From assembly GCA_963666055.2 (NCBI GenBank), contig CAXWPH010000003.1, positions 96,001 through 160,000 on the forward strand: a DNA stretch of 64,000 bases. Direction: 5' to 3'. Made by a program: the position numbers and the translations under genes. Under the pieces are notes generated by a model. That model was given only the letters and a program-made list of their open reading frames with translations, made no database searches and was not told where the DNA came from. This document shows positions 1 to 40,324 of the stretch, piece by piece. Within the stretch, counting starts at the first letter, position 1, and each line of letters opens with the position of its first letter. The DNA is from Acidobacteriota bacterium (GTDB lineage Bacteria; Acidobacteriota; UBA890; WLXD01).

Positions 1-1280
1 TAGACGCTTCCGGTGAGGTTGCCCTCGAGGCGCTCGGCGATCTGTACCATCTGCGCAGCGTCGGTCGCCACGACGATGAGGTTGGAGTTGCCGAATGCCT
101 CGGTTTGCAGGCCTTCTGGATTGGCTAGGAACGCCGCGCCGCTAGTACGTAGCAAGGTGTTCTGGAAGCGACAGCCTTGCCCCTCAATAGGCTCGCCGCC
201 GGTGAGTAGCTCGGCGCCGGCCGTTTGAAGGGTGTCGACCGCAGCCACCAGCCCTTGCACCCCTCCGGCACCCAGGAGCGCCCCCACGTCCGAGCCTGCG
301 AAGCGTGCGCGAAGGTCGTCGACAAAGGCCTCGGCGTCGTCGCCGGCCTGCACGACAACCACACCCGGGTTGGTGCAAAACTGGCCCGTACCCAGCAGCG
401 CCGAGCCGACGAACTCCTCGGCAAGGGCCTCGCGGCGCTCGCCTAGCGCGCCCGGCAGCACGAACACCGGGTTGATGCTGGAGAGCTCGAGATAGATCGG
501 CTTGCCGGCGCGGTCGGCGGCTTCCTTCAATACCAGCCCGGCGGCGCGCGAGCCCGTGTAGCCGGTGGCGGCCACCAAAGGATGCGCCACGAGATAGGCG
601 CCGTCATCGTGCGATGTGCGGTAGATCATCTGAACCGTCGCCGCTGGTAGGCCGGTCTCCTGAAGAGCTGGAACCACGGCCTCGGCGAGCAACTGCGTGG
701 TGCGCGGGTGGCTGGAATGACCCTTGGAGATCACCGGGTTGCCGGCAGCGATGGCAGCGGCGAAGTCGCCGCCGCAGGATCCGTTGAAGGCGAGTGGGAA
801 GTTGTTCGGTCCGAACACCGCCACGGGTCCGCCCAAAGGACCGTACATCGATCGAATGTCGCTGGCGGTATCGATCGTCGGCTGTCGCCAGCTTCCACTG
901 CGAGCAGCGGCGGCCGCCTGTCGCAGCTGATCGGTGGTTCGCGGCAACTCCACGTCCGCCAAGCGCGGGGACAACGGCAGCGCCGTCTCGAGGCTGGCGG
1001 CTGCGGTGATCTCGTCTTTGGCGGCGTCGATACGGTGAGCATAGCCATCCAGGAACGCGGCGATGCGCTCCGGCTCGGCATCGGCCAGGGTGCGGGCGGC
1101 GTCTGCGCCTGCGTGTAGCGCCGCGTCAATGTCGGCCCGACTGCTTACCGGGTAGACGTGAGGCAGCGGCTCGCCGGTATCCGGATTGGCGGCCTGGAAC
1201 GTTCCGGTGGCGTCGGCTGGTCGCCACTCTCCGTCTACGAGTATCTTCTCCACGGGCTGCTCCACTGCGATGAGTTCCAT
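1..1280 (-). CDS. NAD(P)-dependent aldehyde dehydrogenase (2,5-dioxovalerate/KGSA dehydrogenase-like); runs off the left edge
   Basis: Missing from the ORF track because there is no stop in the window. Manual translation from ATG at 1280 gives MELIAVEQPVEKILVDGEW...ELPRTTDQLR...VFGPNNFPLAFNG...KGHSSHP...GYTGS...GKPIYLELSSINPV...LEGNLTGSV. Confidence 0.85.
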   Translation of the reverse strand, partial: MELIAVEQPVEKILVDGEWRPADATGTFQAANPDTGEPLPHVYPVSSRADIDAALHAGADAARTLADAEPERIAAFLDGYAHRIDAAKDEITAAASLETALPLSPRLADVELPRTTDQLRQAAAAARSGSWRQPTIDTASDIRSMYGPLGGPVAVFGPNNFPLAFNGSCGGDFAAAIAAGNPVISKGHSSHPRTTQLLAEAVVPALQETGLPAATVQMIYRTSHDDGAYLVAHPLVAATGYTGSRAAGLVLKEAADRAGKPIYLELSSINPVFVLPGALGERREALAEEFVGSALLGTGQFCTNPGVVVVQAGDDAEAFVDDLRARFAGSDVGALLGAGGVQGLVAAVDTLQTAGAELLTGGEPIEGQGCRFQNTLLRTSGAAFLANPEGLQTEAFGNSNLIVVATDAAQMVQIAERLEGNLTGSV

Positions 1281-1618
1281 CGGACGGTGCCGGCGTCTGT
1301 GCCGCGAAAGGCGCCGACAGTTTGGAAGGGCGGCGCGCCACAGAATCTACAACTCGTGGCTCGCACGCGTAGCCGGCCAGCGCGCCGCATGTCGGTGACG
1401 GTGCGCGCACGACGAGTTGCGTTCGCCAGCTCCGTTCGCTACGGGACGCCCAGTTTGCTCGATTTGATCCGCGTGTTCACGGATATAATGGCTCGAGTGC
1501 CGACTCTCCAGCGACGCTACCGGGCTTCCATTACCCGCCCTGGTAGGCGTTTGCTACGATTCCGGAACCGTTCGCGCCGCCGCGTCGACCGCCGTCGATC
1601 CCGGCGTTTCTGATCCCT

Positions 1619-1789
1619 ATGCTCGTTTCCAAGGACGCCCAGATTTATGTTGCTGGCCATCGCGGCCTCGTGGGCACGAGCGTTGTGCGGCACCTCCAAG
1701 AGCGGGGCTTCACCAACATATTGACTGCTACCCGCGACGAGCTGGACCTGCGCGACCAGCGGGCGGTAAACGCGTGGTTCGCGGCTCAC
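1619..1789 (+). pseudogene. fcl: N-terminal fragment (~57 aa) of GDP-L-fucose synthase
   Basis: IYVAGHRGLVG...GFTNILTATRDELDLRDQRAVNAWFAAH is the typical Fcl N-terminus. Similarity stops abruptly at ~1789. Confidence 0.8.
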
Positions 1790-3033
1790 GACACCGTGCT
1801 GCGCTACTCGCCCGAGGAAGCCGAGAAGGTCACCGGCATACCTGCGCCAACGACGCCGGCGCGACGCCGATCTACCTGCCGGGCTACCAGCGCGTCGACG
1901 ACCCCGAGGTGCACGCCAAGTACGAGAAGTCGTGGGGCGTGAAGCTGTCGCCTGAGCCCGGAATGAACCTCAACATCATGATGAAACAGGTGGGCAAGCG
2001 TATCAAAGGCATGTTTGTCATGGGCGAGGACATCGTCCTATCGGAGCCCAACGTCAAGCATCTCGAGGAGGGGCTGAACAACATCGAGTTCCTCGTCTAC
2101 CAGGACATCTTTCTCAACGAGACCGCCCGTTTCGCCGACGTGATCCTCCCCGCCGCGGTGTTTGCCGAGAAGGAGGGGACGTTTACAAACTCGGAACGTC
2201 GAGTGCAACTCGTGCGCAAGGCGGTGGAGCCGCCGGGCATGGCGCGACCCGACTGGGAGATCATCAGAAACCTCGCCAATGCCGCCGGAGCTTCGTGGAA
2301 CTACGAGACCGCCGCCGAGGTCTACGACGAGCTCGCCCGCGACACCCACCAGTTCGCCGGCATCAGCCACGCTCGCATTGACGCTGAGGAGCATCGCGGC
2401 AAGACCGGTATCCAGTGGCCCTGCCCGAATCCGCAACACCCGGGAACGGAGTTCTTGCACGAGGGTGGCGCGTTGCGCGGCAAGGCGCTCTTCGTTGCCG
2501 CCGACTACCGCCCGTCGATGGAGGTCGAAGACGAGGACTACGGGCTGCTGCTGTCAACCGGGCGCACTTTGTACCATTACAACTGCGCTACCCAGACGCG
2601 CCGTGAAACCGGCCTGGACATGAAACAGTCGGACCCGTTCGTCGAGATCCATCGCCGCGACGCCCGCAAGCGCGGCATCGAGCACGGCGATCTCGTCGAG
2701 GTTTCGACGCGCCGCGGCGCCGTCCAGTTGCGCGCCATGGTCTCGCGCCAGGTGCGCCCGGGCTGTATCTGGATGCCGCTGCACTTCGCCGAGGCGCGCG
2801 CCAACCTGCTCACCAACGACGCCGGCGATCCGGTCACCCAGACGGCCGAGTACAAGGTCTGCGCCGCCGAGATCACCAAGCTGGCTTCGGCGACTGAGTC
2901 CGAGCGCGCCGAGCTGTTCCCGGGTACCTACTACGGCATTCAGGGCCCCGGATACCATGTCACCGAGTTCAAGGGCGGTGCCGCTGCGGTCGCCGTTCCC
3001 GTGCTGCACAGTCCTGACCGCGGCCAAGGCTGA
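1790..3033 (+). pseudogene. C-terminal part of a molybdopterin formate dehydrogenase alpha subunit (FdhF-like), 5'-truncated and internally deleted
   Basis: YSPEEAEKVTGIPA (frame of ORF 1619), then ANDAGATPIYLPGYQ...QDIFLNETARFADVILPAAVFAEKEGTFTNSERRVQ...TGRTLYHYN...AEYKVCA (frame of ORF 1774). The N-terminal Fe-S and active-site region is absent. Confidence 0.8.
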
Positions 3034-4674
<1,641 letters not shown>

Positions 4675-37894: not shown

Positions 37895-38482
37895 CTACGG
37901 ATAGAGCATCCCACTCCGCCAGCCGCCGTCGTCGGTGCGCTCGAACACCGTGCGGTCGTGCAATCGTCCCAGCCGCGATTCCCAGAATTCGATTCGCGAA
38001 GGATTCAGCAGATACCCTCCCCAGAATGCCGGGCGGGGGATCCTCTGTCCGAGCCGTCGCGCCTTTTCGGTGACGTAGGCGATGATCAGCTCTCGACGGC
38101 CCTGTAACGGTTCGCTTTGCCGCGACGCCCAGGCGCCGAGCTGGCTCTGGCGCGCCCGAGTGGCGAAGTAGGCGTCGGCTTCCGCCTCCGAGACCCGCGT
38201 AACGGTGCCCTCGACGCGGATCTGCTTGGCGAGGGTGGGCCAGTAGAAAACCAGCGCGGCGCGGGGGTTGGCGTCGAGCTCGCTGGCTTTGCGGCTGCCG
38301 TAGTTCGTGTAGAAGACAAAGCCGTGCTCGTCGGCGCACTTCAGCAGCACCATCCGCGCCGACGGCTGTCCTTCTGCCGTGGTGGTCGCCAGGGTCATGG
38401 CCGTGGCGCGCTGCGGCTCGCCGTTGCGTTCGGCCTGCCGCTGCAACTGCAGGAAGCGAGCGATGGGATCGTGGACGTGCAT
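37895..38482 (-). CDS. pdxH: Pyridoxamine 5'-phosphate oxidase
   Basis: PSARMVLLK, FYTNYGSRK, QIRVEG, SQLGAWAS, IEFW...RLHDR. Confidence 0.95.
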   Translation of the reverse strand: MHVHDPIARFLQLQRQAERNGEPQRATAMTLATTTAEGQPSARMVLLKCADEHGFVFYTNYGSRKASELDANPRAALVFYWPTLAKQIRVEGTVTRVSEAEADAYFATRARQSQLGAWASRQSEPLQGRRELIIAYVTEKARRLGQRIPRPAFWGGYLLNPSRIEFWESRLGRLHDRTVFERTDDGGWRSGMLYP

Positions 38483-38718
38483 GAGGTGATTATCGCCCGG
38501 ACGGTGGTGCGGTGTGGCGCCGGGCGCCCGGATGAGGGGCCGTCGACCGCAGGCATGCCTGGCGCTCCGAGATTTCGGTGTTCACCAACCGGTAACGTGA
38601 GTCCGGCGAGACTCTCAAGTAATTGAAATAACTGATCTTAGAGATTTTTTCTGCGCCGGCTCAAGAAAAACGCGCGCCGCGCTTGCCGGAATGAAGCGTC
38701 CGTAGTTTGATCACTCGG

Positions 38719-39181
38719 GTCCGGATGATTGCCCCGGCCAAACGGGAGATTCGGAACCTGTTGAGGTCGCGAAACGACCTCGAGTAGAGAACGGCTCGAC
38801 GAGCCTGGAAGCGGACCCGCAAGGGGAAGCGAAAGGGCTCGGGGGATAAACGGGAGCTCGAGAGGGAGCCCGGGACGCCCGGGGAGGCGCTGGAAGCCCG
38901 CAAGGGTGGAAGGCGACTGCCTGAACGAGGTGGACCAGACGTTCGCAAGGACGAGTGGGAAGTTTCGACGGGGCTGGAAGGCGAACCCGCGAGGGGGAGC
39001 CGGAGAGCAACGGAGCCAACGGCACGTTCGTCAGAGTGATGCCGATGGCAGGGTCGACGGAAAGGCTCGCAAGAGTCGGGAAGTCGAGCCATAGAGGCGA
39101 AGGAAGCTCGAGGAAACGATCGCGATGGAGGGTTTCGGACCCCACGGGAGGCCGTCGCGGTAATCATCCGGGCATTTTTTT
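38719..39181 (+). ncRNA. Candidate large structured ncRNA (~455 nt) of unrecognised class
   Basis: 15-bp terminal helix (38719-38733 with 39159-39173) followed by T7; at least 8 internal hairpins; six GNRA tetraloops; no credible ORF. Confidence 0.7.
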
Positions 39182-39318
39182 GGTACCCGGAATGGCCCGA
39201 GGGGATGCGGGGCGAACCTAGCGGAACAGCTGGTGTTCGCCTCGCTGGGGCGCCGTCAGCTGGGTGCTTTGCGGTGTCGGCTTACTAGCGGGTTGCTTTC
39301 CGTTCGTTCACCCGGGCG

Positions 39319-40122
39319 TCACCCATCGTCGAATGGCAACGGCTTGACGATCAGGTTGCGCCAGATACAGGCGGGAGCGACCGGTATGCGGACCTTCCAC
39401 AGGGCGGTGCCGTCGATCTGGGGAGCCTCTAGCTGCACGTCGTAGAGACCCACTGCCAGGTCGTTGATCTCGAACCAGCCGTCGCTGTCGCTCAGATAAG
39501 TGCGGTTGTCGCCTTCCGCCACCTCCAAGCTGATTCTCACACCGGGGACCGGACCGCCAGGATCGAGGCGGAAGCCGCTAGGCCGCTCCGCGCCGAGAGG
39601 CAGTTGCTGACGCTCCCGGTAGACCATGCCATACAGCGACACGACCTTCTCGGCTGTCTCGAGGCCGCGCAGGTAGGCCAGATCCGTCTCGGCGTCTCTG
39701 GCTAGCCGGGTGCGCGAACAGATTCCGGTCTCATACCGGCCGGTACGAGCCGACTGGTTGGCGTAAACGAGGTAAGTGCGGTTCGTGGCGAACTGGAAGC
39801 CGCAGTCTCCGCCGCCGGCGCCGGTTGCCACGATCACCTCGCGCTTACCCTCGGCGCCACGCCACCGTTCTAGCACACGCAAGGTTGCCAGGATCCTGAT
39901 TTGCACCTCGCCGTCCGTTTCCTCGGTAACCGTGTCCAGGCGGGTCACCCGTCCGACAAAGATCGCGGCAGTCTGCCACCACACCTCGCAGGCGGGGCGC
40001 TTCGGTGACATGCAGGAGCAACAGGCCGTGGCCGCTCCGTCAGTGCCGGGTGTCTCCAGTCCCAGAGTCGCGGGCGCCAGGCCCAGGATGACTGCCGCCA
40101 GCAGCGGCCGCAGGGGTTTCAT
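39319..40122 (-). CDS. Exported hypothetical protein: TIMP/NTR-like CSC...CG domain plus carboxypeptidase-regulatory-like beta-sandwich
   Basis: Signal peptide, ACCSC, AIFVGRV, GGGDCGFQF...YLVYA...CSRT, SDSDGWFEINDLAVGLY. Confidence 0.65.
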   Translation of the reverse strand: MKPLRPLLAAVILGLAPATLGLETPGTDGAATACCSCMSPKRPACEVWWQTAAIFVGRVTRLDTVTEETDGEVQIRILATLRVLERWRGAEGKREVIVATGAGGGDCGFQFATNRTYLVYANQSARTGRYETGICSRTRLARDAETDLAYLRGLETAEKVVSLYGMVYRERQQLPLGAERPSGFRLDPGGPVPGVRISLEVAEGDNRTYLSDSDGWFEINDLAVGLYDVQLEAPQIDGTALWKVRIPVAPACIWRNLIVKPLPFDDG

Positions 40123-40324
40123 TGTGGGATCCTCAAGGCGACGGAGATTGACACTACAAGCATACACAAACCGGGCGAACAGCGGTCCACGTCGGCTCAG
40201 TGTCAGGCGCGGCCGCTGTCGATCAGCTAACCTTCTCTAACGACGGGTTCGAGTTTCGAGGGGCGACGAATCGGGGTGTTCCCGCGTCCTGCGTTCCGAG
40301 GACACTTCTATTGGGAGAGCTTTC

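Follow-up and report, generated by a model that had tools for sequence, protein, structure and literature searches.

A seven-armed RNA from uncultured Acidobacteriota as an expanded member of a small rod-shaped RNA family

The locus and its folded RNA

The DNA analysed here (the window) is a stretch of 64,000 nucleotides (nt) from an uncultured Acidobacteriota bacterium (assembly GCA_963666055.2, contig CAXWPH010000003.1, positions 96,001 to 160,000), and coordinates are window positions unless another locus is named. Its + strand carries a structured RNA element of 463 nt at 38719-39181, whose sequence and coordinates were confirmed. The two flanking genes both lie on the - strand and serve as context only: a divergent pdxH (37895..38482; Pfam PNPOx_N, 3e-29) and a convergent gene for a 282-amino-acid protein (39319..40167) with a weak CarboxypepD_reg match below the Pfam cut-off. 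The fold, covariation among homologues, contigs in RNA libraries and single-copy occurrence in the genome together make the element very probably a genuine, previously undescribed RNA gene. The gene is stand-alone and single-copy, its product is about 460 nt long (mature form about 447-463 nt), and the element is a lineage-specific expansion of a family of rod-shaped RNAs of about 176 nt. The bacterium belongs to a class that comprises one order, represented in our collection by 26 species genomes, 11 from the window's own family (f1) and 15 from its sister family (f2).

A sequence-only reading of this DNA had proposed a strongly purine-skewed + strand element between pdxH and a hypothetical gene, with paired ends followed by T7, a series of GNRA-capped modules with symmetric purine loops, and selection acting on the structure of a + strand RNA. 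The + strand is 64% purine and 12% T and contains 27 GGA motifs in 463 nt, placed in internal loops and not in hairpin loops. Its minimum free energy (MFE; ViennaRNA) is -224.6 kcal/mol against a mean of -178.9 (sd 5.6) for dinucleotide shuffles, which gives a z score of -8.11, and none of 100 shuffles is as stable; the reverse complement reaches z = -2.70, with 1 of 100 shuffles equally good. In the MFE structure a trunk (P1-P4) is closed by the RNA's own 5' and 3' ends and opens into a junction with seven hairpin arms. Six of the seven hairpin loops have GNRA caps (GCAA four times, GAGA and GCGA) and the remaining loop is GUCA. The terminal stem is even longer than proposed, as 38719-38733/39159-39173 extends inward to 38739/39150 to give 21 base pairs (bp) with two bulges on the 3' side. 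The internal hairpins listed by that reading stand as the seven arms, and its first hairpin is qualified below.

Long forms of the RNA were gathered by genome and metagenome scans, leaving out L156, which is cut by a contig end, and 11 distinct homologues from two genera were aligned over 487 columns. RNAalifold finds 104 pairs in this alignment, 25 of them with compensatory changes. When the MFE structure of the window copy is projected on the same alignment, 87.6% of cells pair and both sides change in 35 of 144 pairs, against a shuffled mean of 21.1 (none of 500 shuffles reaches 35); slid partners give 5-12. Together with the difference in fold between the strands, this supports a structured RNA on the + strand, as proposed. 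With the exception of arm b, each arm contains one or more helices that show a compensatory pair or 100% pairing.

The two arms of P1 (38719..38739 and 39150..39173, +) are paired in 99.1% of cells among the 11 homologues. The 5' arm is near-invariant across the family, and the 3' arm, with its conserved bulges, lies within the family signature GGGAGGCCGUCGCGG in the most conserved stretch of the RNA, which BLAST matches in every homologue (query 447-483). A U7 tract (seven T, 39175..39181, +) follows P1 directly, a T run follows P1 in every homologue, and P1 and this tract probably form an intrinsic terminator made from the RNA's two ends. Upstream, a -35-like box (TTGCCG, 38683..38688, +) stands 17 nt before a -10-like box (TTTGAT, 38706..38711, +), which is itself 7 nt before the predicted first base, G38719. 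TTGnnn occupies the -35 position in 8 of 8 aligned f1 homologues, where the -10-like box is kept as (G)TTTGAT, TTGGAT or TTTATT, and the two boxes probably act as a promoter. Because both neighbours are on the opposite strand and these promoter-like boxes are conserved, the element is regarded as a gene in its own right.

Just inward of P1 lies an internal loop whose 5' side, AAACGGGAGA (38740..38749, +), has AAAC/GAAC..GAG conserved in paralogues A and B of the family, which are described in the next section. It is followed by P2 (5' strand 38750..38759, +, with 39130-39139), for which alignment columns 39-44/431-436 give six pairs, two of them compensatory, at 92.4% paired. The conserved core loop GUUGAG (38760..38765, +) then faces GGA at 39127-39129. 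The 3' side of this loop, AUGGAGGG (39125..39132, +), contains a family-invariant GGAG, as CUGGAG in A and CUGGAGGAG in B, and the 6x3 loop (GYUGARG facing GGA within CUGGAG) recurs in short forms of A and in B. The trunk is completed by the P3-P4 5' strands (38766..38797, +), which pair with 39094-39126 through 22 pairs, 10 of them compensatory, and in the MFE structure form the helices 38766-38785/39106-39126 and 38792-38797/39094-39099. The first hairpin of the sequence-only reading (38761..38783, +) competes with this arrangement, since it excludes P3. It has nine pairs, two compensatory, at 89.9% paired; the MFE favours the long-range pairing to 39106-39126, the homologues are compatible with both, and alignment column 52 covaries with both of its alternative partners. 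The two mutually exclusive pairings at 38761-38785 may constitute a conformational switch.

The arms, all on the + strand, differ in sequence and resemble one another in design. Arm a (38800..38841; MFE and alignment helices 7-9) has GGAA/GAAA and GGA/GAA loops beneath a GCAA cap, and its GGAAG at 38807-38811 is invariant across the 11 homologues. Arm b (38843..38880; MFE and helices 10-11) has AG/AG loops and a GAGA cap. Arm c (38881..38922; MFE and helices 12-15) reads GGAA-GCCC-GCAA-GGGU-GGAA, the module best conserved between genera, which is also present in G008 and, several times, in G007, two f1 genomes with long forms of other lengths. GGA/GAA and GA/AG loops with a GCAA cap make up arm d (38926..38967; helices 16-17, with 14 pairs, six compensatory), GGAA/GGAG and GAA/GGA loops with a GCGA cap make up arm e (38969..39012; helices 18-20), and arm g (39051..39090; helices 22-23) combines GGAAA/GGGAA loops with a GCAA cap. 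Arm f (39015..39049), with the loop region UUCGUCAGA, is the odd one and the weakest: its helix 21 has six compensatory pairs and is 73% paired. The arm f loop (39025-39038) is common to three genera, including those of G008 and G007, and differs in genus g3; the RNAs of G008 and G007 contain UCGUCAG once more in their 3' part.

A discrete RNA molecule is present in RNA libraries, where contigs span 38728-39174, in line with the transcript of about 460 nt anticipated from the sequence. Twenty sequencing runs hold the 1,301-nt stretch of element and flanks wholly or partly, and eight of the twenty are on record as RNA; eight runs were compared, as assemblies and not as reads. In the DNA run X1 one contig passes through the whole 1,301 nt, and the contigs from RNA libraries are restricted to the element. 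X7, X14, X10, X12, X19 and X20 are on record as RNA and come from four studies; X9, from a fifth, is guessed to be RNA. Identity is 100% in X7 and X14 (study P3; 38730-39150 and 38785-39150), X10 and X12 (P5; 38742-39143 and 38769-39144) and X9 (P4; 38736-39151), two letters differ in X19 (P8; 38730-39080) and six in X20 (P9; 38728-39174), which also holds a further relative at 92% identity (38728-39151).

Adapter sequence abuts these contigs at 38728 (X20), 38730 (X19), 39150 (X7 and X14) and 39174 (X20, next to the U7 tract), and library inserts therefore end at these positions. The 5' end of the RNA probably lies at or a few bases before 38728, and its 3' end at or just after 39174. The X9 contig and the X20 relative stop with no loose end at 39151, a position that the DNA run passes through; this is a weak hint. 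The pile-up of ends at 39150/39151 probably reflects the great stability of the terminal stem, whose inner base pair lies there. RNA libraries may contain DNA, and the fixed insert ends at predicted RNA ends argue against such carry-over. Contig depth ranged from 5 to 4,567, a poor measure of expression from which no ranking was made. No RNA-library contig was found on about 400 nt of either flank, which is not evidence, since contigs drop low-depth sequence. At the four informative junctions the adapter at the right end is presumably that of the read-1 side, which would place the RNA on the + strand if the libraries are of the dUTP stranded type; the + strand assignment is based on the asymmetry of the fold, the G-U pairs and this presumed adapter orientation.

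The X10 contig is circularly permuted, 39143 being joined to 38742 with seven letters that fit either side. The two copies of a 7-nt direct repeat, ACGGGAG (38742-38748 and 39144-39150), lie opposite each other at the base of the terminal stem. The joint comes either from a 402-nt circle that lacks this stem or from template switching by reverse transcriptase at the repeat. A back-joint of this type occurs in one of the seven RNA-library runs compared, and an RtcB ligase is encoded in each of five genomes checked.

No Rfam 15 family reaches its gathering score in the whole 64-kb window. At E<=10 the only match on 38550-39350 is mir-2968 (17.5 bits), outside the element, and the OLE, ROOL, GOLLD, raiA and HEARO models give no window match at gathering and none on the element at E<=10. 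Searches of 10 homologous loci and 12 loci of paralogues B and C found nothing relevant either, in agreement with the undescribed RNA proposed by the sequence-only reading. Its exclusion of RNase P RNA, transfer-messenger RNA (tmRNA) and signal recognition particle (SRP) RNA was also correct, as this genome (G000) has its own copies elsewhere (on C12 at 288 bits, C15 at 167.7 and C15 at 73.3, respectively). A Y RNA of the Ro/Rsr type was considered and rejected: PF05731 (TROVE) is found in 0 of 5 order genomes searched and no Rfam Y RNA matches. The RNA family is previously undescribed; the literature searched contains no description of it, and survey supplements (e.g. PMC2864571, PMC5737381) might hold an overlapping unnamed motif.

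It is very improbable that the locus is something other than an RNA gene, namely a minus-strand coding region (open reading frames at 38661-39167 and 38711-39145), a DNA repeat or a cis-acting leader. Most long forms do have stop-free stretches of 118-157 codons, but the open frame switches strand and phase between close relatives, the genera are separated by indels of 1, 2 and 4 nt, and the short forms are without the whole region. The scarcity of T on the + strand alone removes stops, so the minus-strand frames are explained as a by-product of composition. A DNA repeat, which in high copy number would have been a further danger to an RNA interpretation, does not fit an element that is single copy and without direct repeats in the window (none of at least 14 nt within the element). 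For cis-regulation there is no downstream gene on the same strand in f1, both neighbours being on the other one.

A family of rods and the growth of arms

BLAST searches in relatives found full-length copies in four other genomes of the genus, at 90-97% identity. Both element ends match in four further genera of f1, and in f2 the matches are confined to these two ends. Only about 176 nt separate these ends in f2 and also, within f1, in the genus of G005, which identifies the element as an expanded version of a small RNA. The undescribed large non-coding RNA of the sequence-only reading is supported by covariation, the RNA-library contigs and the lack of an Rfam match; it is not a free-standing invention but enlarges a rod family of about 176 nt that has three paralogues in f2.

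In the short form the core is built of a terminal stem, purine loops that are conserved and a single apical module with a GNRA cap. For nine short forms aligned over 180 columns RNAalifold gives a GNRA-tipped rod of 54 pairs, 18 of them compensatory. Among 57 matches from genomes and metagenomes, representing 39 distinct short forms of A and B, 91.2% of cells pair. Both sides change in 29 of the 54 pairs across the 39 distinct sequences, a value reached in 0 of 500 shuffles and compared with 12-20 for slid partners. Public contigs yielded 62 matches to the family pattern, from which L121, L124, L129, L162 and L168 were dropped as apparent chance matches, lacking a U run or a 5' partner.

A covariance model (R1) built from the nine short forms uncovered two more paralogues in f2, B (about 177 nt, 51-68 bits) and C (about 102 nt). 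Family f2 thus has three paralogues, A, B and C, and f1 retains A only. Paralogue C scores 26-31 bits with R1 (E 1e-4 to 3e-3) and its kinship is less certain. BLAST detects B in 13 of the 15 f2 genomes, full-length in 10 and reduced to the 3' half in three; a further match, in G022, falls on that genome's A copy and is not counted. For C the numbers are 14 of 15 in f2 and 0 of 11 in f1. In a 151-genome sample of the phylum R1 matches 7 of 12 genomes of the order and 0 of 139 others, and among the genomes searched the family is confined to one class of uncultured Acidobacteriota.

All three paralogues share a signature made up of a 5' GYYCRGGYGA, a 3' GGGAGGC(C)G(A)UCGYGG and a U run, and A and B additionally share CCCGGCC and the loops UUGARG and CUGGAG. 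The window copy carries these features, with 5' GYYCRGGYGA..CCCGGCC, 3' GGGAGGCCG(A)UCGYGG followed by the U run, and the loop GYUGARG/GGA. As the insertion interrupts the model, R1 picks up only the 3' part of this copy, and weakly (24.6 bits, E 0.008). Copies in f2 are preceded by an A-tract and a promoter-like TTGACA-16/17-TAnnnT, called as TTGACA-16-TAGAGT by the scan in L025.

In one f2 genus and in related marine contigs (L114, L126, L150, L155 and L165; each about 540-830 on the matching strand) paralogue B is reduced to its 3' half. These copies read CUGGAGGAG ... GGGAGGCCGAUCGUGG ... U run and are fused to a different, shorter 5' part; they occur also in G015, G017 and G025 and are possibly a mini form of about 100 nt. 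The five contig copies were left out of the alignments.

The genomic setting links the short and long forms. Gene pdxH adjoins the RNA in genera g1, g3, g4 and g5, and the gene for the 282-amino-acid protein adjoins it in g1, g2, g3 and g5, the G005 short-form locus (L012) among them. As these neighbours are shared with the G005 short-form locus, short and long forms occupy one locus, and the orthology of the long form with short-form paralogue A is supported. In f2, A follows the citrate synthase gene in 3 of 4 scanned loci and precedes an HtrA-type protease gene in two, and B is divergent from a SNF-family transporter gene. The genes that flank paralogue C are always those for a DUF4412 protein and for homoserine dehydrogenase, on the strand of C itself (L059-L064 and L092-L105; e.g. 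L061 1501-1602, -), and C carries its own TTGACA promoter-like site and U run.

The 13 distinct long forms measure 448-463 nt in the window's genus, 468-473 nt in g3, 351 nt in G008 and 510 nt in G007. Their MFE structures have seven hairpins as a rule, four in the 351-nt RNA of G008 and eight in one g3 sequence, and three to six GNRA caps each (five or six in 10 of 13). The difference in size between long and short forms lies wholly in the apical part: the long-form trunk retains the bulged P1, the AAAC.../...GGGAGG loop and the 6x3 loop GUUGAG/GGA of the short forms. Each short form has one apical unit, GA-GCC-GAAA-GGC-GA in A and GAA-GGC-UUCG-GCC-GAA in B, and the repeated arm of the long forms, compared with it by eye, would be this apex multiplied. 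In G007 (L010 1699-1733 and 1799-1833) a 35-nt arm module occurs twice, 100% identical and 100 nt apart, alongside older copies of the same module at 74-76% identity. The identical pair represents a recent tandem duplication inside the RNA gene and points to such duplication as the way in which arms arise, and the arms of the family probably arose by duplication.

Possible functions and the relation to 6S RNA

The many GGA motifs (27 in the window copy) and the repeated-module design had led the sequence-only reading to suggest a multivalent sponge that sequesters CsrA/RsmA, in the manner of CsrB or RsmZ. The element does resemble CsrB and RsmX-Y-Z in the variable count of short repeated modules and in growth by duplication. 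There is, however, next to no chance that it is such a sponge, since Pfam CsrA (PF02599) is found in 0 of 26 order genomes, with controls positive in 3 of 14 known genomes, as expected. Moreover, the GGA motifs lie in internal loops, the hairpin loops being GCAA, GAGA, GCGA and GUCA, and no CsrB or Rsm family of Rfam matches. What survives of the suggestion is its general idea of a platform of repeated modules, with a partner other than CsrA.

Our preferred reading, to which we give a probability of roughly one half, is that the RNA is a multivalent binding platform, a decoy or scaffold, for a putative partner that may be a protein or other copies of the same RNA. Each arm would be a binding module, consisting of a G-C stem of 3-5 bp, a stable tetraloop cap and flanking symmetric purine loops of the tandem G-A type. 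The unpaired columns of the arms are purine in 107 of 117 cases and have a mean identity of 0.82, compared with 0.79 for paired columns. Since the stems covary and the loops are equally well conserved, contact would be made through the purine loops and tetraloops. More arms would then allow more partners per RNA, or more contacts between RNAs, and whatever A, B and C do in common would depend on the trunk loops (GUUGAG/GGA and GGGAGG). A GNRA-capped short G-C stem with a symmetric purine loop of non-canonical pairs also forms the protein-binding site in helix 8 (domain IV) of SRP RNA. The arms may resemble that helix; the genome's SRP RNA lies elsewhere and the SRP model gives no score on the element.

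The same conservation of loops over variable stems would be expected if the RNA assembled by itself, with GNRA caps and purine loops making tertiary or intermolecular contacts to give a compact particle or a homo-oligomer. Its length of about 460 nt, six GNRA tetraloops and many tandem purine loops agree with this idea, and homo-oligomers are known for the large ornate bacterial RNAs OLE, ROOL and GOLLD (PMC12286853). We consider assembly by RNA alone rather improbable, as the element matches none of the Rfam families of these RNAs, no receptor motif was identified in it, and the number of arms varies from 0-1 in short forms to seven within one orthologous family, which is hard to reconcile with a fixed architecture. 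According to PMC12286853 and PMC12968392, OLE, ROOL, GOLLD and raiA are like this RNA in being several hundred nt long, with many GNRA loops and no tie to a neighbouring gene. They differ from it in phylum, their Rfam models do not match the element, and the RNA described here is traceable to a 176-nt ancestor at the same locus.

Several points weigh against an RNA gene with a platform function. A simple sigma-70 scan calls no promoter in the window, since the -10-like TTTGAT breaks its rule of A at position 2, and a scan of the window for local-hairpin terminators calls no terminator. The RNA-library contigs give neither expression level nor strand. The long forms are known from four genera only, with the 13 sequences listed above, and the equation of apex and arm module is a by-eye comparison of sequences. 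The short-form alignment A3 was fitted to the covariance model, which favours its structure. No gene for an RNA-binding protein was found linked to A, B or C, and the arms could serve solely to build a compact tertiary fold.

A different role is suggested by the rod itself, which might replace 6S RNA in the way of Ms1 by binding and restraining RNA polymerase, with the arms as a tolerated or regulatory apical extension. We regard this as unlikely, though several observations fit it. RF00013, the 6S model, scores above cut-off in 62 of 101 phylum genomes and in 0 of 8 order genomes of that sample, and in 0 of 26 order genomes even at E<=0.1. Since RNase P RNA, SRP RNA and tmRNA are all present elsewhere in the genome, 6S is the sole common housekeeping RNA without a match. 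Acidobacterial 6S loci have zapA directly upstream in 10 of 10 cases and rny downstream in 8 of 10, and the window's genome and three other f1 genomes retain zapA beside rny. The zapA-rny spacer of the window's genome (198 nt; L178 1804-2001, contig C1) has no Rfam match and a fold z of -0.05, and the spacers of G005, G006 and G007 (175-265 nt), compared by eye only, contain no 6S-type motifs and no obvious shared sequence. The lack of an RF00013 match and the empty, unstructured zapA-rny slot suggest decay of the canonical 6S gene in this lineage. The empty slot is compatible with a replacement and does not demonstrate one. A Pfam ZapA gene was found in 3 of 3 f1 genomes searched and in G000, and none in the nearly complete f2 genomes G011 and G012.

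The short forms also fit the usual picture of 6S RNA. They have a core of 176-179 nt, a rod shape, a stand-alone gene with a strong TTGACA promoter and, in some genomes, two similar paralogues of about 177 nt. A 6S-like length of about 160-200 nt with paired ends is found in short forms of A and B (176-181 nt), and the window copy is 463 nt. A precedent exists in Actinobacteria, which in PMC9130861 and PMC4191392 are described as largely without 6S and as having an unrelated Ms1 of about 300 nt that binds the polymerase core. The likeness to Ms1 would be that of a non-homologous, longer RNA taking the polymerase role where 6S is missing; by PMC9130861, Ms1 has a central bubble and comes from another phylum, and polymerase binding by the present RNA is only putative.

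Against a replacement stands the absence of any RF00013 score on the element (E<=10) or on 22 homologous loci (E<=1); the best RF00013 matches in the whole genome reach 12.6 bits and lie at other places. The rod has no large central bubble, the largest internal loop in the consensus of nine short forms being 6x3 nt, and as many as seven additional arms extend from it. The RNA is encoded elsewhere, beside pdxH and the gene for the 282-amino-acid protein and not in the zapA-rny slot, and the third paralogue is merely about 102 nt long. Finally, 35 of 101 phylum genomes have neither an RF00013 match nor this family, so loss of 6S and presence of the family are not tightly coupled. It is likewise improbable, though attractive as a speculation, that the class dropped 6S for the rod family, that the seven-armed form captures several polymerases or another global regulator, and that part of it exists as the 402-nt circle.

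The work adds to the known RNAs a family that is supported by covariation, seen in RNA libraries and absent from Rfam 15, and that stems from an uncultured marine and sponge-associated lineage. Unlike that of other orphan ornate RNAs, its origin is readable, from a rod of 176 nt to forms of 351-510 nt that bear four to seven arms and share its locus, and this growth provides a natural series for asking what extra arms do. The lineage that has this RNA is the very one in which canonical 6S, a near-universal regulator, and the slot conserved for it appear to have decayed, which makes a non-homologous replacement of 6S testable with a few in vitro transcripts.

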